From the NCBI GenBank assembly GCA_964510655.1, contig CAZEAY010000002.1:26613-90612 (forward strand): a stretch of 64,000 nt of DNA, written 5' to 3'. Below, piece by piece: positions 10,495 through 64,000 of the stretch. The notes beneath the pieces were generated by a model, which saw only the letters and a program-made list of their open reading frames with translations, did not search any database and was not told where the DNA came from. Numbering within the stretch: position 1 is the stretch's first letter; the number at the start of each line of letters is the position of its first letter. The translations under genes were made by a program, and so were the position numbers. This DNA comes from an uncultured Candidatus Saccharibacteria bacterium (GTDB lineage Bacteria; Patescibacteriota; Minisyncoccia; Phycocordibacterales; XYD1-FULL-46-19).

Positions 10495-10502
10495 TATTTC
10501 AT

Positions 10503-29807: not shown

Positions 29808-29810
29808 TTT

Positions 29811-33368: not shown

Positions 33369-33438
33369 TTTGAATAAAAATTTTAAGTTAAAAAAAGAAC
33401 CCCAGGTGGTAATCCTGGGGTTTTGTTTATCCTTTGGT

Positions 33439-44568: not shown

Positions 44569-44695
44569 CTGTGGTTATGTCTTTTCAGCATTGACTTATT
44601 GATAAAAATATGATACACTAAATAAAGTAAACAATTATGCTCTTATCGGGCATTTTTAATTTTTAAAGACCTGGTCTTTGAAAAGGAGCACAGGT

Positions 44696-45031
44696 ATGAA
44701 TCTCACACGGGTTGAATTGTTGTGTATTTTGATTTTGATTACCGCCTCTTTGTTGCTGGTGGGCAGAATCAATTCACCAAAGAAACCAGTAGTACTCGGC
44801 GGTCTTGAACCGTCAGCTGAGATGCTGATTGTTCACCCTCCTCCACCTAAGGTGAAGGATTTTCATGAGACGGCCATGCCGCGGAACACCTCCGCCTCTC
44901 TTCCTGAGATCGACCCGACCGAGGAGAAGCTGAACAAGCTGGGACTTAGTCTGGTTGGAGGTTCCACTATGAATCTGTCTGGGTTGAGTACTAATACTTC
45001 TGCCACGACAGCGTCGTTACCCGTCCACTGA
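44696..45031 (+). CDS. Small secreted/membrane-anchored Pro/Ser/Thr-rich protein (111 aa), on a high-GC islet
   Basis: An SD AAAGGAG sits 7 nt before the ATG at 44696, and an inverted repeat AAGACC/GGTCTT lies just upstream. It has an N-terminal TM helix. G+C is clearly above the window background. Confidence 0.5.
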   Translation: MNLTRVELLCILILITASLLLVGRINSPKKPVVLGGLEPSAEMLIVHPPPPKVKDFHETAMPRNTSASLPEIDPTEEKLNKLGLSLVGGSTMNLSGLSTNTSATTASLPVH

Positions 45032-45087
45032 CCCGATGATTATCATTTGGTCATAAATTTCACCCCGTTGAAGATAAGGAGCTCACG

Positions 45088-46245
45088 ATGAAGCGGAGTT
45101 TGTTGGGATTGCTTTTCCTGGCCCTGTTTTTGGGACAGATGTCCTGGGCGGTGGAGCTTACGGCTCCCAAGCCCATGACCACTGATACGATTGACGTGCG
45201 CAACATTGCGCGCGCCATCCTGTCTCATCAGGATACTGTTGCCTACAGTGGTAACTTCGGCTACGAAGTGACCCATCTGGATGGTAATGTGGTTTCGACA
45301 CAGGGCACGTTTGAGGGGCGTTATTTCCCCAAAGACGGTCGGGAAATCTTTATGTTTACCGCATTGTCGGTATCATACGACGGGAAGAACCCCATCATTT
45401 ACACCGGTGATCCGTTTGAGGTTTTTCCCTATCCGATGAAGGGGACGGCGAAAAATCTCTGGATCGGAATCAATGGTTTCGACCAGAACGGCCAACCGAC
45501 TCGCTATGGCTCTTTCGCCACCTCAGTGTGGGAGAAAGGTCAACCAATCATCTTTGGAATGAGGCCTGGCTATCTGCCGGTGATCATTCCTTTCAGTTTG
45601 AATGGTCGAGACCCAGCCGGTGTGGGTTTGATCATTGATGGTTGGGGTGGAGTGCCCTTTGGCTATAGCTCAGACCGTGGAGGTTTTGTGGCCTGGCTCG
45701 ACCCATCCACGTTGTACGGCGGTCGAGTTGTCGACTTGTTCAATGGACAGGCGACAATTTTGACTATCCCCAGTTTCAGTTACGGTGATCTGCCATCTTC
45801 AACTGAACCACGTGGTAGCATCGCAAACTTTCAGTGGGAAAGTGGCGTGAACTCGATTAAGTTCGAGAAAGGCTTCTACGACCCTCGTGGCGATGGACAT
45901 TACAATACGTCCATTGTTGAGGAGGGGAAACTTGTCCCGGCCGCAGTGTATATTGTGGAGCCGGGAGATCTGCAGACTTCAGCTCTGTACGGTGCCTTGT
46001 TGGACTTCGCTGGGCGGCTTCAAATTGAAGTTTTTACCGCTCCCGGCCAACGTCTGGTACTGTTGGATAAGTCGTGGAGTAGTCCTTCCCAGGTTCTCAA
46101 CTTTGAGGTGCCGGCCGGCTATCATTCGGTTATGATTACCGTGACCAAATCGAACGGTCCGGTGGCTATTCCCGAATGGTATGTCTGGGACCCGAACAGG
46201 TTTTACCTGATGGTGGGACGCAGTGGCCAGGGTGGAAAGGGCTAG
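45088..46245 (+). CDS. Secreted protein of unknown function (385 aa, signal peptide), on a high-GC islet
   Basis: An SD TAAGGAG sits 6 nt before the ATG. It has the signal peptide MKRSLLGLLFLALFLGQMSWA. G+C is about 50-55% by eye, versus roughly 38-40% for flanking genes. Confidence 0.6.
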   Translation: MKRSLLGLLFLALFLGQMSWAVELTAPKPMTTDTIDVRNIARAILSHQDTVAYSGNFGYEVTHLDGNVVSTQGTFEGRYFPKDGREIFMFTALSVSYDGKNPIIYTGDPFEVFPYPMKGTAKNLWIGINGFDQNGQPTRYGSFATSVWEKGQPIIFGMRPGYLPVIIPFSLNGRDPAGVGLIIDGWGGVPFGYSSDRGGFVAWLDPSTLYGGRVVDLFNGQATILTIPSFSYGDLPSSTEPRGSIANFQWESGVNSIKFEKGFYDPRGDGHYNTSIVEEGKLVPAAVYIVEPGDLQTSALYGALLDFAGRLQIEVFTAPGQRLVLLDKSWSSPSQVLNFEVPAGYHSVMITVTKSNGPVAIPEWYVWDPNRFYLMVGRSGQGGKG

Positions 46246-49364: not shown

Positions 49365-52300
49365 ATGAAAAAAGTTATTTTGGCACTGCTGTTCGTCTTT
49401 ATGATGATCGTTGTGCCTTTTTCAGTTCAAGCTCAGACTGTTGCTGAGCTTCAAGCTATAATTGCTAGTTTGCAGGCTCAGATTGCAGCTCTGGTTGGTG
49501 GGGGCGGAGGAACAGTTGACATTCCACCAGTCACCCCTACTCCGTCCTGTTACACCTTTACCCGTGATTTATGGGTGGGAAGTGTGGGCGACGATGTCAG
49601 GGACTTACAATTATTTTTAAACAGAGAAGTTGGTTCTAGTCTTCCGACGACCCCTTACTTCGGTAATGAAACCAAGCTGGCTCTTATTAAGTTTCAGAGA
49701 GCAAATGGTATTCCATTAACTGGATACTTCGGTCCTCTTACGAGGGCAGCAGTATCAGCAAAAAATGCGGGGTGTGTTGTTGTTCCACCATCAACGACAA
49801 TGAGTTTTATTGATCCAAAAGCCGGAGAGGTGGTTAAAGCGGGAACTGCCTATATGGTTAATTGGGGTGGTTCATGGAGTGGAAATGATTCCTTCAATAT
49901 AACCGAATTCTTAGATAGCGGGAAAGATTTTATTGTTTCTGGACTTACTCAAGAACAGGCGGGATGTCCTGGTTATGGCAAAGGGGTATGCAGTTTTTCA
50001 TGGACCCCTAAGGAGGCTTCGTCTAGAGCTCAATTAGCCATTCAGCGACAATATAACGGGGGAGGCAAAGGTGGGGGAGATATAGCATATTCCGAATTTT
50101 TTTCTGTAGCAGCGGGAAATCAACAAAATAGTGGCGGAGAAGCTTATATTCAGGGAATACCAACACTATCTATCAGTCAAAATTATCGGGATGGGTACAC
50201 TTCGCGCTCAGCGCTAACTATTACGGCGAGAGGAGTTCTGAATTCTAGAGGTGGAGATTCCTATGTTTACCAACAGTCCGGCAGTTTAGGCTTTTACGCT
50301 AAAAGTATGTCTGGCAAGAATTTACCAACACAGGGTACTGCGATCTCTTTTACTATGAACGCTCCAGTTGTCACTGATAGGCTTGGTAATTCTTACTATA
50401 AACTCAGTGAGGGCACTCCTTACTCCTTTACGCAGACAGTTTCTTATGACACCGGATTAATGTTTGGGGGAGTTTATAAGGGAATGTTGTCTCATCTTTC
50501 TTACTTCCGTGACGTAAACGATGTTGCTAATAATATTAATCCAGTGGGAGTTGAAGTGGGTCCTTACAGTAGTCCATCAGCTTATGTCGTTGGAGAAAAG
50601 GGTCCATATCTTACTTCTGCTATTGAAATGGGTAAAAATGAAGTTGGGATGCTTTATCGGGTAAATGGTGAAAGACTAGACGGTAATTCCGTAGTCTACG
50701 TTGACGGTTCTGTCTATGCAAAACAGCCAGATATTGCTTTACCTGCCAGCAGAGATAGTTTATTGTTTGGCTCTCAACCGCTTTCTCCTGGAAATCATTA
50801 TGTTTATGTTGTAAACCCAACAACGGGTCGCAGTAATACTGTTTATTTGCAGGTAGGAAATACGACAAATGAGCCCTCTCTAACTGTTACGACTCCAAAC
50901 GGTGGTGAAATTTATTATTCGAATGATCTACAAGTTTCTTGGCAGTCAAATTATAATTCTCAGTCAGTAAAAGTTCATTTATATAGTCCGATTGATGGAG
51001 ATAAGTATGTTTCTCCAAACCTTAATAGTACGATTGGTGGGAATTCCTTTATTATCCCAGCTGGGACAATAAGAGCTATGAATTCCGGGCAATACAAGAT
51101 AAATGTTTGTGATGATAATCAATCTCCTTCTGGAGATGGCCTGTCAGGAAAGTCCCTTTGTGATTTAAGTGATGATTATTTTACCCTTAAGGGAAGTACA
51201 TCTAATATTTTCCCTGTCGCTAACCCGGTCATCAGTTCCTTTACTGGACCAAACGTTATCACCGCTGGTCAGACAGGAACTTGGACTGCCAGTTTAGCCT
51301 CTTCTTCTGGTCCTGGCTATACTTACTCTATTGATTGGGGAGATGGTTCTGGTTTCCAAAATATTACTAACCCAGCTGTCGCTACCTCAAATATTCGCGG
51401 AACCCATTCTTATGCCAGAGCTGGATCATACGATGTCACTTTTAGAATTTCTTATTATGCGAGTGTTACTTGTGTGAGAGCTCCTTGTAATCCGGTGGCA
51501 CGGACGGTAGAGGCTAAGAATGTTGTCACGGTGGCGGCTGCGACTACTCCTACTAACGGCTGGTGTGGTTCAGCTAATGGTCAGTCATATCCTACTCAGC
51601 CAGACTCAAGTCTCACTTGCTCCAGAGGGACCAGTGCGGATATGAGAACAACAACTACTGGGTGGGCGTGGAATTGTTTGGGTACTAATGGAGGAATTCC
51701 TGTCTCTTGTTGGGCGACTAAGTCAGTAGTGGCTCCGCCAACATCTGTAGATTTGTCGGTTTCTCAGACGATTAGTTCCAATCCATCTCTTGAGAATATC
51801 TATGAAGATAGTCAGGTTACTTTTACGGTAGAAGTTAACAATCCAAGTCAGACATCCTTAGCTGATGTTACTGGTTATTGGATTGTTAATGGAGTAACTT
51901 TCAGTATAAACAAAATGACTGGTAATACCTCCGCTATTACGGTCCCTGCCAATAAAATTTTCCCTGGGCGAAACAATGTAAACTTCAAGATTTATCCACC
52001 GGCTTCAATGAACGAACAAAACACTTGGAATAATACCGTTGATACTTATTTCAATGTTAAAACTCGTACTGTTGAGTCTGATGTACCTCGTACTTTGACA
52101 ATTAATATCGATAACCAATCTACTGGTTATGTAATTGGTGGAAAAAATAATGCTCAGGGTATAAGTGCAATTGAGTTCAATTGTGGACAGCAGGAAGAGG
52201 TTGCTAATGCTAAGATTTGGACCGGTACCGCCTGTTCCCAGACTTATCCAAATGGCACAATTATCACTCTAGTTGCTTCCCATACAGGACTCTTGAAACC

Positions 52301-52550
52301 AGATAATAAAGCGATTGTTCGGGGAACTTTTGGTGGTTGGGGTAATAGTTGTAACTCAAAATCTACTTGGACTTCTATTTACGGTGAAACCTTTGAATCG
52401 TGTTTAGTCAATCTTAATCAGGATAAAGTGATTAATGTTAGTTTTACGGCTCCAGCCTCGGGTTCTACAGGGTTGAACATTTCCTCTGTGAATCAGATGG
52501 CTAATCTTTTGCAATCACTTCAGACTATCCTTAATGGTCTGAAACGCTAG
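49365..52550 (+). CDS. Giant (1061 aa) secreted protein with an N-terminal coiled/Gly segment, a peptidoglycan-binding (PG_binding_1-like) domain, a long beta-rich region, and a C-terminal domain shared with ORF 29811..33368
   Basis: It has the signal peptide MKKVILALLFVFMMIVVPFSVQA. A PGBD-like segment follows (DLWVGSVGDDVRDLQLFLN...GYFGPLTRAAV). The C-terminus is NQSTGYVIGGKNNAQGISAIEFNCGQQEEVANAKIWTGTACSQTYPNGTIITLVAS...SFTAP and the tail is NQMANLLQSLQTILNGLKR. Confidence 0.7.
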   Translation: MKKVILALLFVFMMIVVPFSVQAQTVAELQAIIASLQAQIAALVGGGGGTVDIPPVTPTPSCYTFTRDLWVGSVGDDVRDLQLFLNREVGSSLPTTPYFGNETKLALIKFQRANGIPLTGYFGPLTRAAVSAKNAGCVVVPPSTTMSFIDPKAGEVVKAGTAYMVNWGGSWSGNDSFNITEFLDSGKDFIVSGLTQEQAGCPGYGKGVCSFSWTPKEASSRAQLAIQRQYNGGGKGGGDIAYSEFFSVAAGNQQNSGGEAYIQGIPTLSISQNYRDGYTSRSALTITARGVLNSRGGDSYVYQQSGSLGFYAKSMSGKNLPTQGTAISFTMNAPVVTDRLGNSYYKLSEGTPYSFTQTVSYDTGLMFGGVYKGMLSHLSYFRDVNDVANNINPVGVEVGPYSSPSAYVVGEKGPYLTSAIEMGKNEVGMLYRVNGERLDGNSVVYVDGSVYAKQPDIALPASRDSLLFGSQPLSPGNHYVYVVNPTTGRSNTVYLQVGNTTNEPSLTVTTPNGGEIYYSNDLQVSWQSNYNSQSVKVHLYSPIDGDKYVSPNLNSTIGGNSFIIPAGTIRAMNSGQYKINVCDDNQSPSGDGLSGKSLCDLSDDYFTLKGSTSNIFPVANPVISSFTGPNVITAGQTGTWTASLASSSGPGYTYSIDWGDGSGFQNITNPAVATSNIRGTHSYARAGSYDVTFRISYYASVTCVRAPCNPVARTVEAKNVVTVAAATTPTNGWCGSANGQSYPTQPDSSLTCSRGTSADMRTTTTGWAWNCLGTNGGIPVSCWATKSVVAPPTSVDLSVSQTISSNPSLENIYEDSQVTFTVEVNNPSQTSLADVTGYWIVNGVTFSINKMTGNTSAITVPANKIFPGRNNVNFKIYPPASMNEQNTWNNTVDTYFNVKTRTVESDVPRTLTINIDNQSTGYVIGGKNNAQGISAIEFNCGQQEEVANAKIWTGTACSQTYPNGTIITLVASHTGLLKPDNKAIVRGTFGGWGNSCNSKSTWTSIYGETFESCLVNLNQDKVINVSFTAPASGSTGLNISSVNQMANLLQSLQTILNGLKR

Positions 52551-52572
52551 ATTTTGGATTAAGGTTATTTTA

Positions 52573-52604
52573 AAAACCCCAAGCTCTAAAGCTTGGGGTT
52601 TTTG
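52573..52604 (+). terminator. Terminator (aaaaaccccaagctctaaagcttggggttttt)
   Basis: A CCCCAAGCT/AGCTTGGGG stem with a T-tract. Confidence 0.85.
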
Positions 52605-52734
52605 GTAAAGGGGAGATAAATTTTCTTATTTTATATGTTATAATGTTATTAATCACCGTATTTTTTAAGCAAGTGTTCTTTTTTTTGTTATCATTCTAAG
52701 TTTATAGTTTTTAATATTAATTTTTTACTAAATC

Positions 52735-55014
52735 ATGTTTAAGAAAATTGTAGCTTCGCTCGTATTGGTGTTTATTCTTGTTCCAATTTTAACAAAAAAT
52801 ATTTCTTTTTTTGGCTTAGAGAAAATACTAGCACGGATTCAGAACCAAATGACCGCTGGACTTTTTGTTAGCTGTCTCGATTCGTCAGATAACAGTTCAA
52901 CAAGCAATGTGAGTTGTACAGAAATATCAGGTTTGTTTGTGGAACAGCCAAATTCTAATGAGCACGCTAATTCTTTTTCTAACGCGGTAAAGAGGGAAAA
53001 AACTTTTAAAATTAACAACTCCTTACTCGATGGGACTAAATTAAAAAAAGGCGTCCAGATAGATATTCCTCTTTTTTCTGATGCTAAATTTAAAGGACGG
53101 GTTGAAGAAATTATTTTCCGGTTACCAACTAGTTTCACTTTGATTGGTACTATTAATCGTGATCGGGCGGGAAAATTTTATTGGACTAGAGAGGGAGATG
53201 CCTCCTCAATAGATATTTCTTCGTCTGATGGTTTGTATGAGGTTAGACCCGTTTCCAACGGTAAACATGTTGTTAGTGAGATCAATGAAGATAAACTGCC
53301 TCCGTACGATGATACCTTGTTGGTTGATAACGATATTGTTAGTACTGGAACTTTAGATACTTCTTCGTCTTCAGTTGACTCTAGTGGAAATACAATAGTG
53401 GATGTCTTGGTCGTTTACACTCCAGCCGCCAGAATAGCCGCCGGGGGAGTTTCTGGGATAACATCTAACATTCGTTTGGCTGTAGATAAGGCTAATCAAG
53501 CTTACTTGAATAGTGGGGTAAAAATAAAACTAAATCTCGTCGGTCCTAATGGTGACCCCTATGAAGTTGCTGGTTATACCGAGACAGGTGATTCCCATGT
53601 TGATTTATCACGTTTGGCTGGAACTTCAGATGGCTATATGGATGAAGTCCACAATCTAAGAAATACATATGGAGCAGATCTGGTAAATTTAATTGGGCAA
53701 AATATTGGGTCTGTCTGTGGGACAGCTTATCTAATGCGTTCAGTTTCTTTGTCCTTTGCTTCCTCAGCTTTTTCTGTGGTGGCTCGTGGTTGTATTAGTA
53801 ATCATAGTTTTGCTCATGAACTCGGACACAATATGGGTGCCGCTCATGATGTGGCGAATGCTTCAAGCGCTGGAGCCTATCCTTATTCGTACGGTTGGCG
53901 TTGGGCGGGATCTAGCGGGGCTGTTTTTCGCAGTATAATGTCTTATTCACCAGGGACGAGGATTAATTATTTTTCTAATCCTGCTGTTTTGTATGATGGC
54001 ATACCAACTGGTGTAAATGAGGCTAATAATTCTCTTACTTTAAATAACACCGCCCCCACAGTTTCTCAGTTTCGTAATTCTCCCGATCTTATTTCGCCCT
54101 TAGTCTCAATTACTAATCCTGTTTCTGGATCTACCTATATTTCATCTCAGATTCTACCAATTTCTGTTTTAGCCAGTGATAATGTAGGGATTGCGCGAGT
54201 AGAATTCTATGACAATGATACGATAAAAGGAACTATAAATAGTGCTCCTTATTCCTATAATTGGAACATTAATTCTACTAATAATGGTGCTCACCGCTGG
54301 ACAGCTAAGGTCTACGATACCTCTGGTAATAATGCTATCTCTGACCCAGTGGGAATAAATGTCGATATTCCTAATCTGGATGATGTTGCTCCGGTTGTGA
54401 CTATTGTCAGTCCAGCAGCTAGTTCGACAGTCTCTGGTGTTGTAAATGTTTCGGTAAATGCAACCGACAATCTTGGAGTTTCTAGTGTGGAATTTTATTT
54501 AGATAATGTCTTAAAAACAACTAAATCAGTGACCCCTTACGTTTTTGCTTGGGATACTAAGACTGTAGTTGATGGAGTTTACTCACTTAAGTCTAAAGCT
54601 TATGACATAGTGGGAAATGTTGGAATAGCTGGACCACTTAATGTAATTGTTAAAAATGCTAGTCTTGTAGATACTATTCCACCATTGGTAACAATAAAGG
54701 GACCGTCGGTAATAAGTAACAAGAATAAAACTTTTACGGCTTCTTCGTCGGATAATGTTGGGGTGGCAAAGGTTGAATTTTATCTAGATAGTGCAACTGC
54801 TCCATTTATCACTGACACTAGTATGCCTTACAGCGCCACCATAAACACCAAAAAACTTTCTGTTGGTTCTCATATTATTTTCGCTAAAGCCTATGACTTG
54901 TCTGGTAATACTGCTTCCTCGAGTATGTCCTTTTCTTATGGATTGGCTTATAACTTATTTAATCAATTGGCCAATATTTTGGTCTCCGTTGGGACAATCC
55001 TTGGTCTTAGGTAG
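52735..55014 (+). CDS. Secreted zinc metalloprotease (HExxHxxGxxH, reprolysin/metzincin-like) followed by about 4 tandem Ig-like domains and a conserved C-terminal tail
   Basis: An N-terminal anchor or signal (LVLVFILVPIL) is present. The catalytic motif is FAHELGHNMGAAHD. Tandem ~90-aa repeats each carry ...DN(V/L)GV(A/S)(R/K)VEFY(L)D.... The tail NQLANILVSVGTILGLR matches the tail of the preceding giant protein. Confidence 0.7.
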   Translation: MFKKIVASLVLVFILVPILTKNISFFGLEKILARIQNQMTAGLFVSCLDSSDNSSTSNVSCTEISGLFVEQPNSNEHANSFSNAVKREKTFKINNSLLDGTKLKKGVQIDIPLFSDAKFKGRVEEIIFRLPTSFTLIGTINRDRAGKFYWTREGDASSIDISSSDGLYEVRPVSNGKHVVSEINEDKLPPYDDTLLVDNDIVSTGTLDTSSSSVDSSGNTIVDVLVVYTPAARIAAGGVSGITSNIRLAVDKANQAYLNSGVKIKLNLVGPNGDPYEVAGYTETGDSHVDLSRLAGTSDGYMDEVHNLRNTYGADLVNLIGQNIGSVCGTAYLMRSVSLSFASSAFSVVARGCISNHSFAHELGHNMGAAHDVANASSAGAYPYSYGWRWAGSSGAVFRSIMSYSPGTRINYFSNPAVLYDGIPTGVNEANNSLTLNNTAPTVSQFRNSPDLISPLVSITNPVSGSTYISSQILPISVLASDNVGIARVEFYDNDTIKGTINSAPYSYNWNINSTNNGAHRWTAKVYDTSGNNAISDPVGINVDIPNLDDVAPVVTIVSPAASSTVSGVVNVSVNATDNLGVSSVEFYLDNVLKTTKSVTPYVFAWDTKTVVDGVYSLKSKAYDIVGNVGIAGPLNVIVKNASLVDTIPPLVTIKGPSVISNKNKTFTASSSDNVGVAKVEFYLDSATAPFITDTSMPYSATINTKKLSVGSHIIFAKAYDLSGNTASSSMSFSYGLAYNLFNQLANILVSVGTILGLR

Positions 55015-55024
55015 TGTCGTTCCT

Positions 55025-55063
55025 AAAAAATAACCCCTCGATTTAGTCGAGGGGTTATTTTTT
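55025..55063. terminator. Bidirectional terminator (aaaaaataacccctcgatttagtcgaggggttatttttt)
   Basis: A 12-bp palindrome AACCCCTCGA/TCGAGGGGTT flanked by A- and T-tracts, between convergent genes. Confidence 0.85.
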
Positions 55064-55070
55064 AGGAATC

Positions 55071-55415
55071 TTATTTAACTGAGGCTACAAGCTTAGAAAA
55101 AGTCTCGGGATTGTTTTGCACTAGGTCGGCCATTACTTTGCGGTCCAGTTCAATATTTTTTACTTTCAATAGATTGATGAACTTACTGTACGATAATCCC
55201 TCCTTTTTGACGGCTCCACTAATTTTTACCGTCCAGAGACGGCGGAAGTCATTCTTTTTGTCGCGGCGATGAGCAAAGGCATTTACTCCAGCTTTTACGA
55301 TGGCGACTTTAGCCTCGCGCTCTTTGGTGCTGCGTCCAAAACGATAACCCTTAGTACGTTTTAGGGTATTCTTTCGAGTCTTATTAGCAATTGTTCCTCT
55401 TTTTACTCTTGGCAT
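55071..55415 (-). CDS. rplT: 50S ribosomal protein L20
   Basis: It has MPRVKRG and is L20 family. Confidence 0.9.
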   Translation of the reverse strand: MPRVKRGTIANKTRKNTLKRTKGYRFGRSTKEREAKVAIVKAGVNAFAHRRDKKNDFRRLWTVKISGAVKKEGLSYSKFINLLKVKNIELDRKVMADLVQNNPETFSKLVASVK

Positions 55416-55424
55416 GGTATTAAA

Positions 55425-55610
55425 TTAAGCGTTTGGCAAAAATCTACTAATCTGCTTGTTAGTCATGGAAAAATCAGCTGTTCCTTTGTGGTTCAGTTGG
55501 GTCGAGCGTTTGGCTCGGGCATTGAAATGGTTTTGTCCCGCAATGCGTCCTAAAATCTTACCCTTCTTGGTTACTTTTAGGCGTTTGGAGAATGACTTGT
55601 TTGTTTTCAT
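55425..55610 (-). CDS. rpmI: 50S ribosomal protein L35
   Basis: A 61-aa basic protein placed between infC and rplT. Confidence 0.8.
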   Translation of the reverse strand: MKTNKSFSKRLKVTKKGKILGRIAGQNHFNARAKRSTQLNHKGTADFSMTNKQISRFLPNA

Positions 55611-55614
55611 ATTA

Positions 55615-56193
55615 TTAAATTTGTTCTGACTTTTCTTCTATTTCTACTGTATCGTTTGGTTTGTCCAGGGTGACTTTTTTTACTAACTGTCTTTCGATGA
55701 CAGTAGTTAGTCCCTTAGGGCTTTTTTTAGCAGGATCGGCGATTTTGTAGTCTTCAGTAATTAGCTTAAGAATACGATCTAAACGTTCCTGCAAAAATTG
55801 AAAGTTAAAGTACTTGGAACGTCCAGGGAGGAAGAGGTCAATTTTAACGCGGTGACCATCTTTTAGAAATTCAGAGGCTTTTTTGGCTTTAATCTCCAAA
55901 TCTTTATCACCAGTACCAATTTTCACCTGCAGAGATTTTGTCTCGGTCGTGTGACTCTTGGCTCGGGCTTCTTTCTCCTTTTTTTGTTGGATATACTGAT
56001 ATTTTCCGTAATCCATGATCTTCGCGACCGGTGGAACGGCATTAGGAGATATTTCAATTAAATCTAATCCCAGCTCCTCGGCTTTACTTAAAGCCTCGGC
56101 AAGAGAGATGACCCCAAGATTTTCACCATCATCGGTGAGAACACGTAACTCTTTGGATCTTATTTGATGATTTATATGAATTATGTCTTTCAA
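55615..56193 (-). CDS. infC: Translation initiation factor IF-3
   Basis: It has the IF3 N- and C-domain motifs (LDLIEISPNAVPPVAKIMDYGKY). Operon order is infC-rpmI-rplT. Confidence 0.9.
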   Translation of the reverse strand: MKDIIHINHQIRSKELRVLTDDGENLGVISLAEALSKAEELGLDLIEISPNAVPPVAKIMDYGKYQYIQQKKEKEARAKSHTTETKSLQVKIGTGDKDLEIKAKKASEFLKDGHRVKIDLFLPGRSKYFNFQFLQERLDRILKLITEDYKIADPAKKSPKGLTTVIERQLVKKVTLDKPNDTVEIEEKSEQI

Positions 56194-56393
56194 GTATATG
56201 CTAGATAAAACCCCCTAAAACAAATTTTTACTAAAATTTGTTCGGGCGAACACTTCTTAAAGAGAAGTGTTTTAGCCACTAAAACCAGGGAATAGGGTAA
56301 TACTAAGCTATTTAAGGTCTATTGTCAATATCGTTTGAGTCTAAAACCCCTTTATTTTTTGCCATTTTTCGGCTTGACTGTTAAGATTAATCT

Positions 56394-56840
56394 ATGTCAC
56401 TAGTAGACAATAAAAAGGCTGGTTTCAACTATGAAATAGGCGACAAATACGAGGCCGGGATTGAGCTTTTGGGTTCGGAGTCCAAGTCTATCCGTGCTAA
56501 AAGGGGGTCTTTAGAGGGCTCCTATGTCAAAATTCGTGGTAACGAGGCTTTTTTGGTGGGGGCGACTATTCCCGCTTTTCAAGCTACTAATGTCCCTAAA
56601 AGCTATGATCCAGAGCGAGTAAGGCGTCTTTTGCTGACTAAAGCTGAGCTAAGGTATTTGACTGGCCGAGAAAGCGAGAAGGGATTGACTTTAATCCCTT
56701 TATCGTTGTATAATAAAGGAAGGTTTATTAAGCTGTCTTTTGGAATAGCCAAAAATAAGAAGAAGTTTGATAAGCGTGAAGATATTAAGAAGAGAGAAAC
56801 CGATCGCGAGATTCATCGTGATTTGAAGAGTTTTAGATAG
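56394..56840 (+). CDS. smpB: SsrA-binding protein SmpB
   Basis: SmpB family, 148 aa, immediately upstream of tmRNA. Confidence 0.85.
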   Translation: MSLVDNKKAGFNYEIGDKYEAGIELLGSESKSIRAKRGSLEGSYVKIRGNEAFLVGATIPAFQATNVPKSYDPERVRRLLLTKAELRYLTGRESEKGLTLIPLSLYNKGRFIKLSFGIAKNKKKFDKREDIKKRETDREIHRDLKSFR

Positions 56841-56858
56841 AACGTTGAAAAAAGAATT

Positions 56859-57241
56859 GGGGATGATTGGCCTAGACAATTAATTTCCCTTTTGTGTGCA
56901 TGTCGAAGATTCTAACAAGATTCGTAATATATGTTAGGAAAAAGAAGTGCAAAAACTTCAAAGGGGATAGCATCCCCTTATATGCCAGCTTTCGCTTTAG
57001 CCTAAGCTGACCGTCCGTTCATTTGGATGCTCGATAGATTTGAACGGGTGTCATAAACTGCGAGCTAGGATTTGAGAATGTTTCGACTCAACCCCAAAGC
57101 CACTTCGGTGGAATAGAAACTCGACTAGTTAGTATTTTGGCGGCTTAGAGCTAGCTAGTTTAAAACCCCTAAACCTCCTACACATGTAGATTCACAAAAG
57201 ATTATTATTTGCACGTGGGTTCGATTCCCACCATCTCCACA
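56859..57241 (+). ncRNA. ssrA: Transfer-messenger RNA (tmRNA, ssrA)
   Basis: The 5' GGGGAUG pairs with the 3' CAUCUCC to form an acceptor stem with a G3-U70 wobble, followed by discriminator A. A T-arm GUGGGUUCGAUUCCCAC is present. An internal reading frame ends ...PAFALA-TAA at 57003-57005 (tag-like). It lies directly downstream of smpB and is about 383 nt long. Confidence 0.85.
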
Positions 57242-57282
57242 AAAAAAGTCCGCGAAATGTATTCGCGGACTGTGAGTTTTTG
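57241..57282. terminator. Terminator after ssrA (aaaaaaagtccgcgaaatgtattcgcggactgtgagttttt)
   Basis: A GTCCGCGAA/TTCGCGGAC stem with a T-tract. It also serves the convergent response-regulator gene. Confidence 0.8.
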
Positions 57283-57288
57283 GTCTCC

Positions 57289-57669
57289 CTATGGGGAGTT
57301 TTTTTTGATCATCTCGATGATGAAGTAAGGCACCTCGTCTTTACACACGGCTTGATTGCAACCACCCACATTGATGAGTTCGGTTCTCTTGCACTCATCA
57401 CAAGAGGCGGCGATCATAAAGCAGTGAGGGTTTTGCTGGCGAATGTCTTTGGCCAGCTCGGTTGTCGTGCGTCCCCCAGGGACATTTCCGTCGAGGATAG
57501 CGAAATCGATTGGTTCATTGTTCCTGATGATTGTTTCAGCCTCCATTATGTTGGAAGCTTCGAGGACATCGATGGGCTTTCCTGAGCTCTTCAGAATCAT
57601 CCGACACAAGTCTCGGATGCACTGATCGTCCTCAACAATCAAGATGACGGACCTTTTTGCCAGACCCAT
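57289..57669 (-). CDS. Orphan response-regulator receiver (CheY-like REC) domain protein with a Cys-rich C-terminal region
   Basis: ILIVEDDQ carries the phospho-acceptor-site context (D in FAILDGNVPGG). A 4-Cys tail follows (CFMIAASCDECK...GGCNQAVC). An SD AAAGGAA is present, and GC is higher. Confidence 0.6.
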   Translation of the reverse strand: MGLAKRSVILIVEDDQCIRDLCRMILKSSGKPIDVLEASNIMEAETIIRNNEPIDFAILDGNVPGGRTTTELAKDIRQQNPHCFMIAASCDECKRTELINVGGCNQAVCKDEVPYFIIEMIKKNSP

Positions 57670-57866
57670 AACAATTCCTTTCTGTGTCTCATGATCAGAG
57701 ACCGACCAGGCTGTATATAGGTTACTTGTCTATTTTTTATGGTATACCTTTTGAAGGTAAAGTAAAGATTTATGAAGATATTTTTTCTGGTCAGTTTTGC
57801 GTGACTTATGTTTTTTCATGATATATTTAAGACAGGCTAAGTACATTACATAAGGAGAATCTCAAA

Positions 57867-58721
57867 ATGATTGGTTCAAATGAACGGTCCCTGGAACTAG
57901 GAGAAAAGCCAAATTGGCTAGCAGCGATTCCTTTTATGATTGTTAATCTGTTAGGGATTTATGGCCTGCGTTATGTTTTTACGAGTTGGTCGGTCGCGGT
58001 GGTAATGATCTCTCTTTATTTTGTCCGGATGTTTTTTATCACCGGATTTCAGCATCGGTATTTTTCTCATCGGTCATTTGTCATCACTCCGCGTTGGGGA
58101 GAAAAATTTGTTCGCGGGGTGCAGTTTCTCATGGCTCTGCTGGTTACTTCTTCAGCACAAAAGGGTGTCTTGTGGTGGGCGTCACATCACCGTCATCATC
58201 ATAAACATTCTGACACGGAAGAAGATGTCCACTCTCGTTTCTTGCGCGGATTTTACTGGTCGCATCTGGGTTGGATTTTGTGTCGTCGTTTTGATAAAAC
58301 CGATTCTCGTCTAATTCCCGATTTGGTTCGTTTCCCTGAATTGGTTTTCTTGGATCGACGACTGGGCTATCTAATCATGCCTGTTGTTTTGAGTCTTGTC
58401 TGTCTGTGGTTCGGTGGCTGGCCCATGTTGTGTGGAGGGTTTTTTACCAGCACCTTCTTTCTCTACCACGGGACATTCTCGATAAATTCTCTGGCCCACA
58501 TGTGGGGGACGCAACGTTATCAAACGGGAGATCAGAGTCGTAACTCACTTTTGTTGGCGATTATAACTATGGGGGAAGGTTGGCATAACAACCATCACTT
58601 TTCTCCTGGTTATGAACCACAAGCTCTGACTCGTTTCGAAAAATGCTTTGATTGGACCCACCAGATTTTGTATCTCATTAGTTTGACTGGGCTGATTAGT
58701 CTTCGGACAAAAAAAGCTTAG
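57867..58721 (+). CDS. Membrane acyl-CoA/acyl-lipid fatty-acid desaturase (delta-9-like, three His-box family)
   Basis: The His boxes are HRYFSHRSF, HHRHHHKHSD and HNNHHFSP. There are 4 TM helices. An SD TAAGGAG sits 10 nt before the ATG. Confidence 0.8.
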   Translation: MIGSNERSLELGEKPNWLAAIPFMIVNLLGIYGLRYVFTSWSVAVVMISLYFVRMFFITGFQHRYFSHRSFVITPRWGEKFVRGVQFLMALLVTSSAQKGVLWWASHHRHHHKHSDTEEDVHSRFLRGFYWSHLGWILCRRFDKTDSRLIPDLVRFPELVFLDRRLGYLIMPVVLSLVCLWFGGWPMLCGGFFTSTFFLYHGTFSINSLAHMWGTQRYQTGDQSRNSLLLAIITMGEGWHNNHHFSPGYEPQALTRFEKCFDWTHQILYLISLTGLISLRTKKA

Positions 58722-58741
58722 TCCTATTGGTCGTTTGACCG

Positions 58742-58776
58742 CCCCTTACCCACCGCCGGGTGAGGGGTTTTTATTT
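58742..58776 (+). terminator. GC-rich terminator (ccccttacccaccgccgggtgaggggtttttattt)
   Basis: An imperfect CCCCTTACC/GGTGAGGGG stem with a T-tract. Confidence 0.6.
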
Positions 58777-58886
58777 GACATTCTATCTCATTTCTGCTAT
58801 ACTTAAATTACAAAAGAGTGTGGTGAGAAAAAAAGAGTGTCGATTTTCATAGACTATTTTTGTATTTAGTAGAGTAAAAAAAATCA

Positions 58887-59084
58887 ATGACTGGAACAAT
58901 CAAGAAATTGACTGACAAAGGTTATGGTTTCATCTCTGGCGAAGGCTTGGCGAAGGACTTGTTCTTCCACAGCAATTCGTTGGTAGGTGTAAACTTTGAT
59001 GAACTTCGCGAAGGTGATGCTGTTTCTTTCGAAACAGAGGAATCTCCAAAGGGTTTGAATGCTGTAAACGTACAGCGCGCCTAA
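58887..59084 (+). CDS. csp: Cold-shock protein (CspA family)
   Basis: It has GTIKKLTDKGYGFI (an RNP1-like KGFGFI variant) and is 65 aa. Confidence 0.85.
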   Translation: MTGTIKKLTDKGYGFISGEGLAKDLFFHSNSLVGVNFDELREGDAVSFETEESPKGLNAVNVQRA

Positions 59085-59094
59085 TCAAGAAAAA

Positions 59095-59122
59095 CAAAAA
59101 ACCGCCCGAGGGCGGTTTTTTG
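59095..59122 (+). terminator. Terminator (aaaaaaccgcccgagggcggttttttg)
   Basis: A CCGCCC/GGGCGG stem with a T-tract. Confidence 0.85.
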
Positions 59123-59165
59123 TTTTTCTGTAAAATCCCCACCATTTTTTTGGTCAGAAGAGTGC

Positions 59166-59194
59166 TTTCAATTGATGTCCATTTATTGTATAAT
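59166..59194 (+). promoter_or_regulatory. Promoter TTTCAA-17-TATAAT (extended TGtTATAAT) for ftsH
   Basis: The -10 is at 59189-59194, so the ORF-track start at 59172 lies upstream of the promoter. ftsH therefore most likely starts at ATG 59238. Confidence 0.45.
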
Positions 59195-59237
59195 CAAAGC
59201 TCATTTGAGAGGACTTTTAACTTTAACTGATAAAAAT

Positions 59238-61196
59238 ATGGCTAAACATAAAGATAATTTAAATATGAAAAGCGAACGCCCAGGCCGGTTGGCTGGTAAG
59301 TTTGCCCAACAAATTATCACCGGTCTTTTGATTTTGATGTTGGTAGTTAGCGCTTTTACTCTTTTTTCTGGTAAAGATAAGACAGCTACGGAAGTTATCC
59401 CTATTTCTCAGGTTGCTCGAGATATTTCCGCTGGTCAGGTGTCTAAGCTAATTGTTAAAGGAGACGAGGTTAATATTACTTATACTGATAAAACTCAAAA
59501 AAATTCTAAGAAAGAAGTAGAATCTAGTATTTCTGATACTTTAAAAAATTATGGTGTGACAGTGGAAGCGATGGATAAGGTGGCGATTGAAGTTAAAGAT
59601 CAGTCCAGTTTCAGTTTTTGGTTGGCTACTCTTACCCCCTTTCTCTTATCTTTTTTGATGATTGGTTTTATTATTTGGCTTCTGTCTCGTCAAGTGAAGG
59701 GGGCGAGTATGCAAGCTTTTACTTTTGGTCAGTCTCGAGCCCGCTTAGTTGATCCAAACGATCTCAGTCAAAAAGTTACTTTTAAAGATGTGGCCGGAGT
59801 TAAAGAAGCAAAAGAAGAATTGAAAGAGATTGTTGATTTTCTTAAAAACCCCAAAAAATTCTTGGAGATTGGCGCTCGTATTCCTAAGGGTGTTTTGTTG
59901 ATGGGTGGACCCGGAACAGGCAAGACTTTACTGGCCCGAGCTGTTGCCGGTGAAGCAGCCGTACCATTTTTATATTTGTCTGGTTCGGAATTCGTGGAAA
60001 TGTTTGTGGGAGTGGGAGCTTCTCGCGTCCGTGACTTATTTAAGATGGCAAAGAATATTGCTCCAGCTATTATTTTTATCGATGAAATTGATGCAATTGG
60101 CCGTCATCGTGGCAGTGGTATGGGGGGAGGTAATGATGAGCGTGAACAAACTCTAAATCAAATTTTGGTGGAGATGGATGGTTTTGAGCCTAATGAGAAA
60201 TTGATTGTTATGGCGGCTACTAACCGTCCCGATGTTTTGGATCCGGCTTTGTTGCGCCCTGGTCGTTTTGACCGACGAGTGACTTTGGATGCTCCAGATA
60301 TTAAAGATCGGCAAGAAATTTTAGCTATTCATGCCAAGAAAAAACCATTAGGTGAGGATGTGAATTTGCAGGTTATTTCGGAACGAACCCCTGGTTTTTC
60401 TGGAGCTGATTTAGCTAATCTAATGAACGAAGCGGCTATTCTGGCCGCACGTGAAGATCGTAAGAAAATTAGTCAGTATGATCTTATTCGTTCGGTGGAA
60501 AAAGTTATGTTGGGTCCAGAACGTAAAAGTCATATTCTTTCCAAACAAGAAAAGAAAATTACCGCTTATCATGAGATGGGACATGCTTTAGTGGCTTCTG
60601 TCTTACCTAATTCTGATCCTGTCCATAAAGTTTCTATTGTTTCTCGTGGTTATGCCGCTGGGTATACTTTGAAACTGCCATTTGAAGATCGCAAATTACA
60701 ATCGCGCAAAGAATTTCTAGATGACATCGCTGTTTCTTTGGCTGGTTATGCGGCTGAAACAATGATTTTTGGTGATATGACCACTGGAGCCTCTAACGAT
60801 ATTCAAGTATCCTCAGCTTTAGCTCGTGATATGGTTGCTCGTTATGGGATGAGTGATAAAATTGGACCCGTTGCTTTTGAGGCTGGTTCAAAAATGTCCA
60901 TGTCCCCGGTGGCGATGGGAGATCGTTATTCTTCGGAGTCGGTTGGTTCGGCGATTGATGCAGAAGTCTCACGAATTATGAAGGAGGGCTTGGACCGCGC
61001 CACAGAGGTTTTGTCGACACAAAAGAAAGCTTTGGATATGATGTCTCTTGAACTGATTAAGGTGGAAACATTAGAACGGGAGGAATTTGAAAAACTTCTA
61101 ATCTTAAATGGAATTAAACCCAAAACTTCTCGTAAAGATGAGCCACAAGAAGAACTAGTGATTACCCAAGATGGCGTTGAAACCGAAATCATTTAA
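59238..61196 (+). CDS. ftsH: ATP-dependent zinc metalloprotease FtsH
   Basis: It has two TM helices, the AAA+ Walker A GPPGTGKT-like GGPGTGKT, the second region of homology, and the zinc motif HEMGHAL. Confidence 0.9.
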
Positions 61197-61896
61197 TATT
61201 TATAAGCGAGTCGGGGAAACTCCTCTGGAAGTGATTGAACGAATCCGGGTTAAGTTCCCGGATTTTTCAACTGAAAAAATGACTTATGCTGGGCGGTTAG
61301 ATCCAATGGCTGAAGGAGTGCTAGTCGTGTTGGTAGGGGAAGAATGTAAGAATAAGGAGAAGTATCTTGGTTTGGATAAAGAATATGAAGTGGAATTTTT
61401 GCTAGGAGTAGGGGCGGACACAGGAGATGTGATGGGTTTGGCACAATTATCTGAGGTAAAAAAAGAATTTACCTCATCAGAACTTGTCTCAGTTTTAGAT
61501 TCTTTGATTGGTAAAAAGAAACAAGTTTATCCAAAATATTCTTCCCCTATATTGGCTGGTCAGTCTGGAAGTTTTAAAGAAGTAGAAATAAAAAGTCTTA
61601 AATTTTTGAATCAGCAAAAAATTTCATCTAGCGATCTTTTAAACGAAATAAAGAGAAAAATAGAAATGGTAAATGGAGAATTTCGTCAGGCGGAGATTGT
61701 TGAACGATGGATAAAACTTTTAACCAAGGAACATTTTTTTACCTTGGTTAAATGTCGAGTATTTTGTACGAGCGGTACTTATATTCGCGTTCTAGCTGAA
61801 GATTTGGGTAATAAACTGGGAACAACTGCTTGCGTCTATTCTCTAAAAAGGATAAGGGTGGGTGATATTAAAGATGGTGATTGTTTGAGATTTTAG
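61171..61896 (+). CDS. truB: tRNA pseudouridine(55) synthase TruB
   Basis: It has the catalytic-Asp context GRLDPMAEGVL. It overlaps the ftsH 3' end, so the true start may be slightly downstream. Confidence 0.7.
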   Translation: MALKPKSFNIYKRVGETPLEVIERIRVKFPDFSTEKMTYAGRLDPMAEGVLVVLVGEECKNKEKYLGLDKEYEVEFLLGVGADTGDVMGLAQLSEVKKEFTSSELVSVLDSLIGKKKQVYPKYSSPILAGQSGSFKEVEIKSLKFLNQQKISSSDLLNEIKRKIEMVNGEFRQAEIVERWIKLLTKEHFFTLVKCRVFCTSGTYIRVLAEDLGNKLGTTACVYSLKRIRVGDIKDGDCLRF

Positions 61897-61969
61897 TGCA
61901 TGCGCCTGGACTCGAACCAGGGACCAGTCGTGTATAAGACGACGGCTCTACCAACTGAGCTACGCATGC
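61897..61969 (-). tRNA. tRNA-Ile with anticodon UAU (decodes AUA). CCA is not encoded.
   Basis: The reverse complement folds as a canonical cloverleaf: acceptor GCATGCG/CGCATGC, D-arm GCTC-AGTTGGTA-GAGC, anticodon stem GTCGT/ACGAC with loop C-U-UAU-A-C, and T-arm CCTGG-TTCGAGT-CCAGG. Confidence 0.8.
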
Positions 61970-62023
61970 ATTTTCTTGCTAAAATATACGCTAAAATGAG
62001 CCTTTTCGCAATCTAAGGTCAAA

Positions 62024-62052
62024 CAAAAAACTCGCCAATTGGCGAGTTTTTT
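62024..62052. terminator. Bidirectional terminator (aaaaaactcgccaattggcgagtttttt)
   Basis: A perfect palindrome CTCGCCAATTGGCGAG flanked by A- and T-tracts. Confidence 0.85.
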
Positions 62053-62055
62053 GAA

Positions 62056-62469
62056 TTAACTTTGGAATTCTATTTCAAATGGATACATGCCCATGCCACA
62101 AGTTCCTGCTAAAGTACCAACTGCACTGGTTCCGATTTCTATGTCGGTGATTCCAGAAGAGGGTAAAATTTTACTTATATTTAGACTGGGAATTCGAACT
62201 GACGAAGAACAGTCAAATGTGCCATTAGTATTAAATCTGATAATAGTTGGAAGACCCGCCTTAGCTACACTTTTTCTTGGTTGATAGCCACCTCTGGCTG
62301 TAATTTCTACCACCTGTTTGCCATCTACTAGACTAACATTGTTGGCAGGCAAAGAATATTCGGTTTCGTTTTTCGATTTTTCTACTGTTGGTGGATTTTT
62401 TAGAACAAAAGTCAAGGTTCCGCCGATTAGGATGATCGCAATAATAAGGGCTATGGTGGTTTGTTTCAT
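62056..62469 (-). CDS. Secreted hypothetical protein (137 aa, signal peptide or anchor)
   Basis: It has MKQTTIALIIAIILIGGTLTFVL and is the last gene of the metal-ATPase operon. Confidence 0.45.
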   Translation of the reverse strand: MKQTTIALIIAIILIGGTLTFVLKNPPTVEKSKNETEYSLPANNVSLVDGKQVVEITARGGYQPRKSVAKAGLPTIIRFNTNGTFDCSSSVRIPSLNISKILPSSGITDIEIGTSAVGTLAGTCGMGMYPFEIEFQS

Positions 62470-62482
62470 ATCGTTGATTATA

Positions 62483-63514
62483 TTAGAAATTGAAAACGGG
62501 CGATAGTACTCCGATGATGACTAAACTGTTGATGATATTAAAGAGAGCAAACATAATAACAATTAAGCCAGCCGTTTTGAAGAAAATTCTCTTTTTGGGA
62601 CTTTTTTCAAAACGGAAAGAACTAAAGCTAATTAGAGCTAGAGCGGGTAGAGTGCCAAGAGCAAAGGTTAACATTGTTAAACCTCCTTGAAGAAAGTTGC
62701 CAGTGGTCAGGGTATAAAGTTGCATTGACTGAGTAAATCCACAAGGTAGAAAGAAAGTCGCTATCCCCACCAACAAAGGGGTTAGAGAATGATTTAATTT
62801 TGAGACACGGTGGGCGCGCTTAGCTAAGAATTTCGGCATCGAGGGTGTGAGTTTTTTTGCCCAATGAAAGGTCTCTAGTAAATTAATGCCAAGAATAAGC
62901 ATCACTAGACCAATAACTAGATTCAAGATAAAAGTTACCGTGGAATTGAGAGTGAAAGCTGATCCAATGATGCCAATTACTCCACCTAAAATAAAGAACG
63001 ATACCAATCTTCCCAGATGGAATATTAGTTGAGGCTTTATTTTAGCTCCTTCTTTAGCAAAGGTGGCGGACATGGAAAGGAGTAAGCCTCCAACGACAGC
63101 CATACAGCTAGAAAGAGAGGCAATGAGACCAATTACAAAAGCCGTTCCATAAGTCACCGTTCTGGCATTAATCAGGTTCACAATTCCCATCTTTTGTAGG
63201 GCGACAAAAATAATAACAAATCCTAAAGCAATCGGAATAGCCACTTTAAATTCTTTCCAGTTTAGTTCGTGTTTTTGTTTGTCTATGGAGACGGTGTAGC
63301 CATGTGGTTTGAGGGGGATAGTAAGCTCCTCAGCAATTTGCTCTAGAGTTTTGTCACCAAAATTTCCCACTATTTCTATCGAATGGTTTTTTAAGCTTGA
63401 TTTGACTTGAGTGATATTTGGTAGATCTCCCAGTTCGTTTTCTGTTAGCAAGACACAGGCGTTACAGTGCATCCCGTGAACATGAAAGGTATATTTTTGG
63501 TTTAAGTTTGTCAT
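62483..63514 (-). CDS. Heavy-metal-associated (HMA) domain fused to a multi-pass membrane protein with TM cysteines (putative metal-ion permease/chaperone, CcdA/DsbD-like topology)
   Basis: The N-terminal HMA motif is HGMHCNAC, followed by about 8 TM helices with conserved Cys (SLSSCMAV, FFLPCGF). Confidence 0.55.
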   Translation of the reverse strand: MTNLNQKYTFHVHGMHCNACVLLTENELGDLPNITQVKSSLKNHSIEIVGNFGDKTLEQIAEELTIPLKPHGYTVSIDKQKHELNWKEFKVAIPIALGFVIIFVALQKMGIVNLINARTVTYGTAFVIGLIASLSSCMAVVGGLLLSMSATFAKEGAKIKPQLIFHLGRLVSFFILGGVIGIIGSAFTLNSTVTFILNLVIGLVMLILGINLLETFHWAKKLTPSMPKFLAKRAHRVSKLNHSLTPLLVGIATFFLPCGFTQSMQLYTLTTGNFLQGGLTMLTFALGTLPALALISFSSFRFEKSPKKRIFFKTAGLIVIMFALFNIINSLVIIGVLSPVFNF

Positions 63515-63517
63515 TGT

Positions 63518-64000
63518 TTATATTTTTTTAGTTTTGATTCTAAGAGAGTTGGAGACTACTGAAACCGAAGATAGGGCCATGGCTAGGCCAGCAAAAATCG
63601 GATTTAATAACCAGCCGAATACTGGGTATAAGACTCCGGCTGCCAAAGGAATGCCGACAATATTATAAATAAAGGCCCAAAATAGATTTTGTTTGATTCC
63701 CCGCATGGTTATTTTGGATAGTTTTATCGCTTTGACTAACTTAGAGATGTCACCACCAAGTAGGGTAATACCAGCCGATTCAATTGCGACATCTGTTCCT
63801 GTCCCCATTGCAATGCCAACATCCGCCTGGGCAAGAGCTGGAGCATCGTTGACTCCGTCACCAGCCATGGCCACCACCTCTCCTTTTGATTGTAGTTCTT
63901 TTATTTTTTTGAGCTTGTCTGCCGGGAGAACATTGGCCACTACATTATCAATGCCAACTAGTGAGCCAATATACTTAGCTGTCCGTTCATCGTCGCCGGT
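63518..64000 (-). CDS. Heavy-metal (Cu+/CopA-like) P1B-type ATPase, 3'-terminal part. The gene continues beyond the window end.
   Basis: It has the P-type hinge motif [36 protein letters not shown] followed by the last two TM helices. The reading frame is open to base 64000. Confidence 0.8.

Follow-up and report, generated by a model that had tools for sequence, protein, structure and literature searches.

The hallmarks of genomic islands at transfer-messenger RNA (tmRNA) or tRNA genes are an integrase and a 3′ gene end duplicated as a direct repeat. Bacterial acyl-CoA and acyl-lipid Δ9 desaturases include DesA and DesB of Pseudomonas aeruginosa and DesA3 of Mycobacterium tuberculosis, and in Bacillus subtilis the two-component system DesK/DesR controls the Des desaturase as part of the cold response. 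Bacteria of the candidate phyla radiation (CPR, Patescibacteria) are generally viewed as fermentative lipid scavengers. Here we describe a 64,000-nucleotide stretch of contig CAZEAY010000002.1 (the window), in which the 1.5 kb between the tmRNA gene, ssrA, and the csp-ftsH-truB genes encodes a stand-alone response-regulator receiver and, divergently from it, an integral-membrane acyl desaturase. We consider it probable, at roughly 0.7, that this 1.5 kb is composite, a patch in which two accessory genes from a CPR pool, each inherited independently of the other, are lodged in a rearrangement-prone interval. Nothing found points to an island brought in from another phylum by an integrase. Each gene adds a new member to a known family, and the locus, too, is of a known kind.

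The patch resembles tmRNA- and tRNA-associated islands in its position at the ssrA 3′ flank, in a cargo that varies among relatives, and in a candidate repeat scar carried by one relative (L092). Unlike such islands, it shows neither integrase nor repeat in the window, spans just 1.5 kb and is composite; its receiver part is also kept in another relative (L175) in which ssrA is not adjacent.

Gene content and synteny of the ssrA–csp interval

The features of the interval, by window position and strand, are the following.

56394–56840: smpB, directly 5′ of the tmRNA gene
56859–57240 (+): tmRNA gene (ssrA), found by ARAGORN and by Rfam RF00023; left frame of the variable slot
57247–57271: bidirectional intrinsic-terminator hairpin (predicted) common to ssrA (+) and the receiver (−); 10-pair stem with 6 G-C pairs
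57289–57669 (−): stand-alone receiver, 126 aa, PF00072
57670–57779: receiver-upstream region, weakly (~60%) common to L175 by local alignment of the L175 spacer
57780–58774 (+): desaturase cassette, absent in L175; bounds are those of the indel in the L175 spacer alignment
57819–57827 (+): candidate extended −10 element of the desaturase, TGaTATATT, read by eye and not reported by the promoter scan
57867–58721 (+): Δ9-type integral-membrane di-iron acyl (CoA or lipid) desaturase, 284 aa, PF00487
58741–58768 (+): predicted terminator hairpin of the desaturase
58775–58803 (+): csp promoter, TTGACA-17-TATACT, which starts the right frame of the slot (58775–59084)
58887–59084 (+): cold-shock protein gene (csp/cspA), preceded by its 5′ untranslated region (UTR); right frame, kept in L092 and L175

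The closest relative, L175, carries the positional ortholog of the receiver (P0252), and its FtsH, CSD and TruB are 90.6%, 87.7% and 63% identical to those of the window. Read in window orientation, its genes run from a 793-aa gene through the receiver (−), csp, ftsH and truB to tRNA-Ile(TAT), with no desaturase between receiver and csp and no ssrA beside the receiver. A receiver found without the desaturase and without an adjacent ssrA implies that the patch is composite and no single ssrA-tied unit. The 261-nt receiver–csp spacer of L175 aligns to window positions 57670–57779 and 58775–58886, so that the segment between them, 57780–58774, is a clean indel of ~1 kb. The desaturase cassette delimited in this way is self-contained in its predicted elements, with its own candidate promoter, Shine-Dalgarno (SD) sequence, open reading frame (ORF) and predicted terminator. 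At its exact left junction (57780–57794) lies one copy of a 14–15 nt direct repeat, ATTTTTT(C)TGGTCAG, with a second copy in the csp–ftsH spacer (59143–59156); neither L175 nor L092 has this repeat, which is rich in T and may have arisen by chance.

A second relative, L092 (SmpB 76% and FtsH 84% identical, with the same tmRNA tag peptide, AKTSKGIASPYMPAFALA), has the order IF3-smpB-ssrA-[3.9 kb]-csp-ftsH-truB. Its DNA homology to the window is lost close to the tmRNA 3′ end and picks up again at the −35 box of csp (window 58775). The 3.9-kb slot holds two hypothetical genes, LemA, a TPM-domain protein and Fur, and no homolog of any of these five genes occurs in the window. Cargo at the ssrA 3′ end therefore differs between the window and L092; the receiver part of the patch, however, is present in L175.

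The smpB–ssrA neighbourhood is rearranged in every relative examined. L175 (5577–8911) is missing the L20-L35-IF3-smpB-ssrA block between the 793-aa gene and the receiver, L093 (10001–12369) is rearranged directly 3′ of ssrA with an IF3-L35-L20 block in the opposite orientation, and the contig of P0138 has an rve-family integrase between IF3 and smpB. To judge from these gene orders, the ssrA–csp interval is a turnover hotspot in which the ssrA flank is a recurrent breakpoint. The left frame is itself intact: the tmRNA is full-length and scores 115.3 bits against RF00023 (Rfam gathering score 47). The hairpin at 57247–57271, which follows it, is G+C-rich with T-runs on either strand and is predicted to serve ssrA and the receiver as a shared terminator.

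We propose that the receiver already stood upstream of csp in an ancestor common to the window and L175, and that the desaturase cassette either entered the space between receiver and csp promoter here or was deleted from the L175 lineage. Both genes would have been drawn from a CPR accessory pool by recombination at the hotspot.

The desaturase and the receiver

The three-His-box desaturase named in the original prediction is confirmed at 57867–58721 (+), where the protein scores 55.7 bits against PF00487 FA_desaturase (cutoff 29.7). Its His boxes (H63–H68; H108–H112, with H108/H111/H112; and H240–H244, with H240/H243/H244) and the extra ligands N207 and H211 all fall in register with mouse/human SCD1 (4ymk alignment, E=5e-26), and the same residues are invariant in an 11-sequence alignment of the desaturase and its ten nearest homologs. 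An AlphaFold2 (AF2) model built from the homolog alignment (predicted local distance difference test score, pLDDT, 79; predicted template-modelling score, pTM, 0.82) has the four-helix membrane fold of SCD1, with a Foldseek template-modelling (TM) score of 0.76–0.78 and E of 2e-10 against 4ymk and 4zyo (PDB 4YMK, 4ZYO), although the two proteins are just 26–28% identical. In contrast to other members of the Δ9 desaturase family, the enzyme is minimal (284 aa), lacks a fused cytochrome b5/reductase domain and lies in a CPR host; no electron-donor gene was recognised in the 64-kb window. It also differs from bacterial DesA, falling below the NCBIfam DesA equivalog cutoff (NF049918, 51.4 versus 400 bits), and the JGI label on many of its homologs is stearoyl-CoA Delta9 desaturase. 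Given its family membership and the lipid dependence of CPR bacteria, the enzyme would use O2 and an electron donor to introduce a cis double bond, most likely at Δ9, into saturated acyl chains. By acting on scavenged acyl chains, it would adjust the fluidity of the membrane in the cold or in the presence of oxygen.

The nearest homologs (P0002–P0006) are 58–62% identical to the window desaturase. A second tier at ~50% identity includes L009, from a named Parcubacteria metagenome-assembled genome (MAG), and an outer tier at 42–50% is a large multi-phylum group. In a neighbour-joining (NJ) tree, the near clade, recovered in 99 of 100 bootstrap replicates, consists of P0001–P0009, P0014, L009 and L040. 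Several of these genes have neighbourhoods that look CPR-like: the L001 desaturase (62% identical) sits on a 563-kb contig with type IV secretion system (T4SS) pilins, the L008 contig encodes a GatB 59% identical to that of L093/L094, and the L006 contig a Fur 46% identical to that of L092. The genomic context of the homologs is different in each contig, and the G+C content at their third codon positions (GC3) follows that of each host contig, from 0.35 to 0.60. This tracking, together with the typical codon usage of the window gene (below), indicates long residence in CPR-type hosts, and the evidence as a whole points to a desaturase long resident in CPR-type genomes, patchily distributed and not nested in another phylum. 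Nesting in another phylum had been expected in the case of transfer; instead, the desaturase clusters with CPR-type contigs and the kin of the receiver include a protein annotated Patescibacteria (P0263). No description of a Δ9 desaturase clade in CPR was found in the literature searched.

Two of the homologous loci deserve separate mention. In L001 (8440–11019) the desaturase lies between tRNA-Leu(taa) (+) and tRNA-Cys (−), another setting flanked by genes of the tRNA/tmRNA kind, and just upstream of it are two further tRNAs, a PemK toxin and a 127-aa receiver unrelated to that of the window. In L006 (806–2162) the desaturase is followed by a Fur-family gene, and the Fur gene of L092 (14192–14629) sits just upstream of csp; this may be coincidence or the trace of an older desaturase-fur-csp order. 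As the window has no Fur, we treat the link between Fur and the desaturase as coincidence.

The receiver matches PF00072 Response_reg over residues 9–110 (40.8 bits, cutoff 30.2) and keeps D14, D15, D60, S89 and K110 when aligned to the AdeR receiver and to members of its own subfamily, in agreement with its initial description as a CheY-like single-domain receiver at 57289–57669 (−). The protein consists of the receiver domain only, without an output (e.g. DNA-binding) domain. It shares with CheY/Spo0F/DivK/CpdR-type receivers the single-domain build and the acidic-pocket, phospho-Asp, Ser/Thr and Lys positions, and by these conserved residues it is predicted to be phosphorylation-competent. 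Unlike those receivers, it is very divergent and has a subfamily motif of its own, ILDGNVPG..TTTELA..AAS..GC..K[DE]EVP, common to the top stand-alone matches. A word-indexed protein search returned the receiver itself as the sole match, and an exhaustive HMMER pass through 1.84e9 representatives turned up just 631 matches at E<=1e-3. The best of these is the L175 ortholog P0252 at 46.8% identity, the others being at ~35% or below, and the best PDB match reaches 24 bits. One subfamily member, P0263, annotated Patescibacteria, lies in a housekeeping context between prfA/B and sua5-ksgA. By sequence, then, the receiver belongs to a small, fast-evolving stand-alone subfamily with Patescibacteria members.

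The original prediction also described a C-terminal tail with four cysteines. Four cysteines are indeed present (C90, C93, C104 and C109), but they form no tail or extension: they lie within the fold, in its α4–β5 part, past S89 and up to K110. In P0252 just C104 (and C83) recur, and the other cysteines are not kept in the subfamily; a 4-Cys metal or redox site was rejected on this lack of conservation in P0252 and other subfamily members. A single-sequence AF2 model of the receiver (pLDDT 51) is too poor to judge cysteine geometry.

No partner for the receiver was found nearby. A tblastn search of the 64 kb with 89 large receiver-containing proteins, presumed mostly to be hybrid kinases, matched just the receiver and found no histidine kinase. 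Pfam scans, which took in 44 window ORFs and left out ~20, mostly of the r-protein operons, likewise found no kinase. The earlier statement that the window has no partner histidine kinase is upheld by both searches. Neither chemotaxis genes nor a phosphorelay partner were seen in the window. The receiver would act through protein–protein contact or a phosphorelay, with its kinase encoded elsewhere.

Origin of the two genes and a possible link between them

Both genes are led by SD sequences, as had been claimed: AAGGA at 57676–57680 (−) for the receiver and AAGGAG at 57852–57857 for the desaturase. When scored as a 5-mer at −17 to −7 (chance rate ~3.3% per gene), an SD precedes 6 of the 65 window genes, namely rpsS (28934), 33439–33945 (−), 44696–45031, 45088–46245, the receiver and the desaturase. 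The motif is AAGGAG in five of them and AAGGA before the receiver, its spacing is optimal, and the set is unchanged when alternative start codons are allowed. At this chance rate, SD motifs before core genes are at chance level; the SD signal of the receiver and desaturase is well beyond chance. Mean GC3 is 0.525 in the SD-led genes versus 0.347 in the others (Mann-Whitney p=3.6e-7), and the SD-led genes besides rpsS are five GC3-rich accessory genes. Across the 63 ORFs of >=100 aa, GC3 averages 0.36 (sd 0.07). The claim that both genes have a higher G+C than the core was checked against this profile and stands in full for the receiver, whose GC3 of 0.61 is the highest of the 63 and whose codon usage (z −2.4) is the third most atypical in the window. 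For the desaturase the excess is mild (GC3 0.437, about +1.1 sd) and codon usage is typical (z −0.5).

Other loci in the window share these signatures. A second GC-rich, SD-led pair at 44678–46245 (GC3 0.55–0.58) encodes secreted hypothetical proteins without Pfam match. Compared with L092, the pair is an indel, flanked by NDK (90% identical) on one side and by a DUF2238-like gene (57%) on the other. At 29340–33945, an insert of ~4.6 kb in the S10 r-protein operon, 3′ of rpsS, contains ORFs of 155 and 1185 aa and, on the minus strand, a GC-rich, SD-led one of 168 aa, none with a Pfam match. Over its last ~145 aa, the 1185-aa ORF shares 55–60% identity with the C-terminal region in the L175 and L092 proteins of 793/794 aa.

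The location of the patch at the ssrA 3′ end and its atypical SD and GC3 signatures are what a classical ssrA island might leave, had both genes arrived together from another phylum by site-specific integration and had the integrase and att sites since decayed. L092 offers further material for this account: CGATTCCCGCGTTCTCCA at 11015–11032, a degenerate direct repeat, matches the final 18 nt of ssrA at 16 positions and lies 172 nt beyond the 3′ end of the L092 tmRNA (10470–10842), past a G+C-rich spacer. In a restricted test (last 25 nt of the tmRNA versus the next 500 nt), 0 of 2000 shuffles reached its score. CGATTCCCGCGTTCTCCA is a plausible candidate for the att scar of an earlier ssrA integration, and since it exceeds the shuffles, integration at ssrA probably occurred in this lineage. 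The L001 desaturase, between tRNA genes and with a PemK toxin nearby, also fits. The window itself speaks differently. Neither of the two ORFs in the slot is a recombinase, no integrase was found among the other 42 window ORFs scanned with Pfam, and copies of the ssrA 3′ end are at null level by repeat finding, by a pattern allowing <=3 mismatches and by local alignment over 57243–64000 and 50000–56858 on both strands, the local-alignment scores being equal to those of the shuffled null. The earlier observation that neither integrase nor direct repeat is seen holds within these searches. L175, with its receiver lacking both ssrA and desaturase beside it, weakens the island further, the nearest kin of both genes are in CPR-type contexts, and the desaturase has codon usage typical of the window. 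We regard such an island as very unlikely. What survives of the island originally proposed at ssrA is a variable accessory slot, attested by the L092 cargo and the breaks in homology; its foreign, ssrA-borne character does not survive the lack of integrase and repeat or the arrangement in L175. The reverse account, in which both are vertically inherited Parcubacteria genes and differences reflect differential loss and local rearrangement without any transfer, gains from the CPR-rich desaturase clade, whose divergence (58–62% identity) is about that of GatB between L008 and L093/L094 (59%), from desaturase GC3 values that follow the host contig, and from the syntenic receiver ortholog in L175. 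It is nevertheless rather unlikely, given that the context of the desaturase homologs differs in every contig, that three relatives show three different slot cargos, and that SD motifs precede the receiver and desaturase yet are at chance level before core genes. The desaturase, moreover, appears rare in CPR, with one CPR-labelled genome among the best 80 GTDB matches listed.

A different proposal, compatible with a composite patch, concerns function: the receiver might control the divergent desaturase, and perhaps csp, in a cold or membrane-fluidity response similar to DesK/DesR-des. The genes are divergent across a 197-nt spacer, the desaturase adjoins a cold-shock gene, in L001 a 127-aa receiver (−) precedes the desaturase by 1.2 kb, and DesK/DesR provides a precedent in which a response-regulator gene likewise adjoins a membrane desaturase gene under two-component control. 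The likeness has limits, in that the window receiver has no helix-turn-helix (HTH) output domain and hence none that binds DNA, the window encodes no DesK-like or other kinase, and Des is of the Δ5 type whereas the window enzyme is of the Δ9/SCD type. Nor is the adjacency kept: L175 holds the receiver without a desaturase, and L006, L008 and L009 have no receiver near theirs. The L001 receiver is not alignable to the window receiver by BLASTP and lacks the subfamily motifs, and P0263 lies among housekeeping genes. In a hidden Markov model (HMM) scan of other bacteria, a receiver lies within 2 kb in ~5 of ~160 listed desaturase loci, estimated to be no more than chance. With the L175 receiver alone, the L001 receiver unrelated and no enrichment, a regulatory link is unsupported, and we hold the module to be quite improbable.

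The composite patch of CPR-pool genes remains our preferred reading, and several points weigh against it. Insertion of the cassette here and its deletion in the L175 lineage are equally parsimonious. The desaturase clade is not purely CPR, since the window subclade takes in L040, from a Methylacidiphilales MAG (contig GC 0.62), in 80 of 100 replicates. Tree building was by NJ alone, with bootstraps on Kimura distances; the clade was sampled incompletely, from the matches listed in scans of genome contigs and of metagenome contigs, the only near-clade members added by both scans among those matches being L009/L111; and the taxonomy of most members rests on gene context. No donor more than 62% identical to the desaturase was found, and its substrate, regiospecificity and electron donor are assigned from family membership only. 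Finally, the L175 ortholog of the receiver, at just 46.8% identity, still has an SD (AAGGAG) and a high GC3 (0.67); with half of the residues replaced between the two proteins, a passive 'foreign relic' should have decayed.

The last point touches on a further possibility, that the receiver and desaturase belong to a GC3-rich, SD-led class of accessory genes persisting in Parcubacteria whose core genes lack SD sequences. In L177, the SD-led, GC3-rich genes are the receiver P0263 (0.59) and three hypothetical genes (0.65–0.75), and the housekeeping genes are without SD. Tsurumaki et al. (2022, PMC9297842) report detecting an anti-SD motif in just 48% of Parcubacteria. We consider the existence of such a class quite improbable.

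Host genome and significance

Homologs of the window SmpB carry the names Pacebacteria, Vogelbacteria, Zambryskibacteria, Kaiserbacteria and Patescibacteria, and Pfam matches elsewhere in the window include type IV pilus genes, the glycolytic genes TIM and PGK, RecJ, ComEC and r-protein operons. These names and this gene content indicate a Parcubacteria-type CPR genome, as the earlier description of a CPR-like genome had it. On the right side of the slot, cspA is followed by ftsH, truB and then tRNA-Ile(TAT) at 61896–61969 (−), a tRNA found likewise in L092 (18741–18815) and L175 (1479–1553); a TAT-anticodon tRNA-Ile is an uncommon bacterial way to read AUA. An Rfam cspA thermoregulator match at 58726–59125, spanning the csp 5′ UTR and coding sequence, is sub-threshold (38.9 versus 78 bits, E=2e-7); we give it no weight, as it covers the coding sequence, whose conservation probably drives the match. 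Beyond the tRNA, a copper-handling cluster at 62056–63940 (−) encodes a cupredoxin-like protein, a DsbD_2 protein that also carries an HMA domain, and the C-terminal portion of a probable P-type ATPase that extends past the ORF list.

What is known of the enzyme and receiver families themselves is unchanged by this locus. Its value lies in a base-pair view of accessory-gene exchange in CPR at the ssrA–csp interval, without recognisable mobile-element machinery, and in a desaturase whose small, well-supported clade occurs mostly on CPR-type contigs. An O2-dependent Δ9-type desaturase would let a CPR cell remodel borrowed acyl chains and implies exposure to oxygen. More intriguing than the patch is a by-product of the analysis, the split in SD use and GC3. 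If the SD-led class is real, it could mark either a second mode of translation initiation maintained by selection or a mobile gene pool that spans the phylum and is re-seeded time and again. The receiver, desaturase and csp might then act together, under control of the orphan receiver, when a lipid-scavenging organism responds to cold, oxygen or membrane fluidity. The separation of an SD-less core from SD-led, GC3-rich accessory genes is a simple marker, and it could flag flexible genes or dual initiation regimes.

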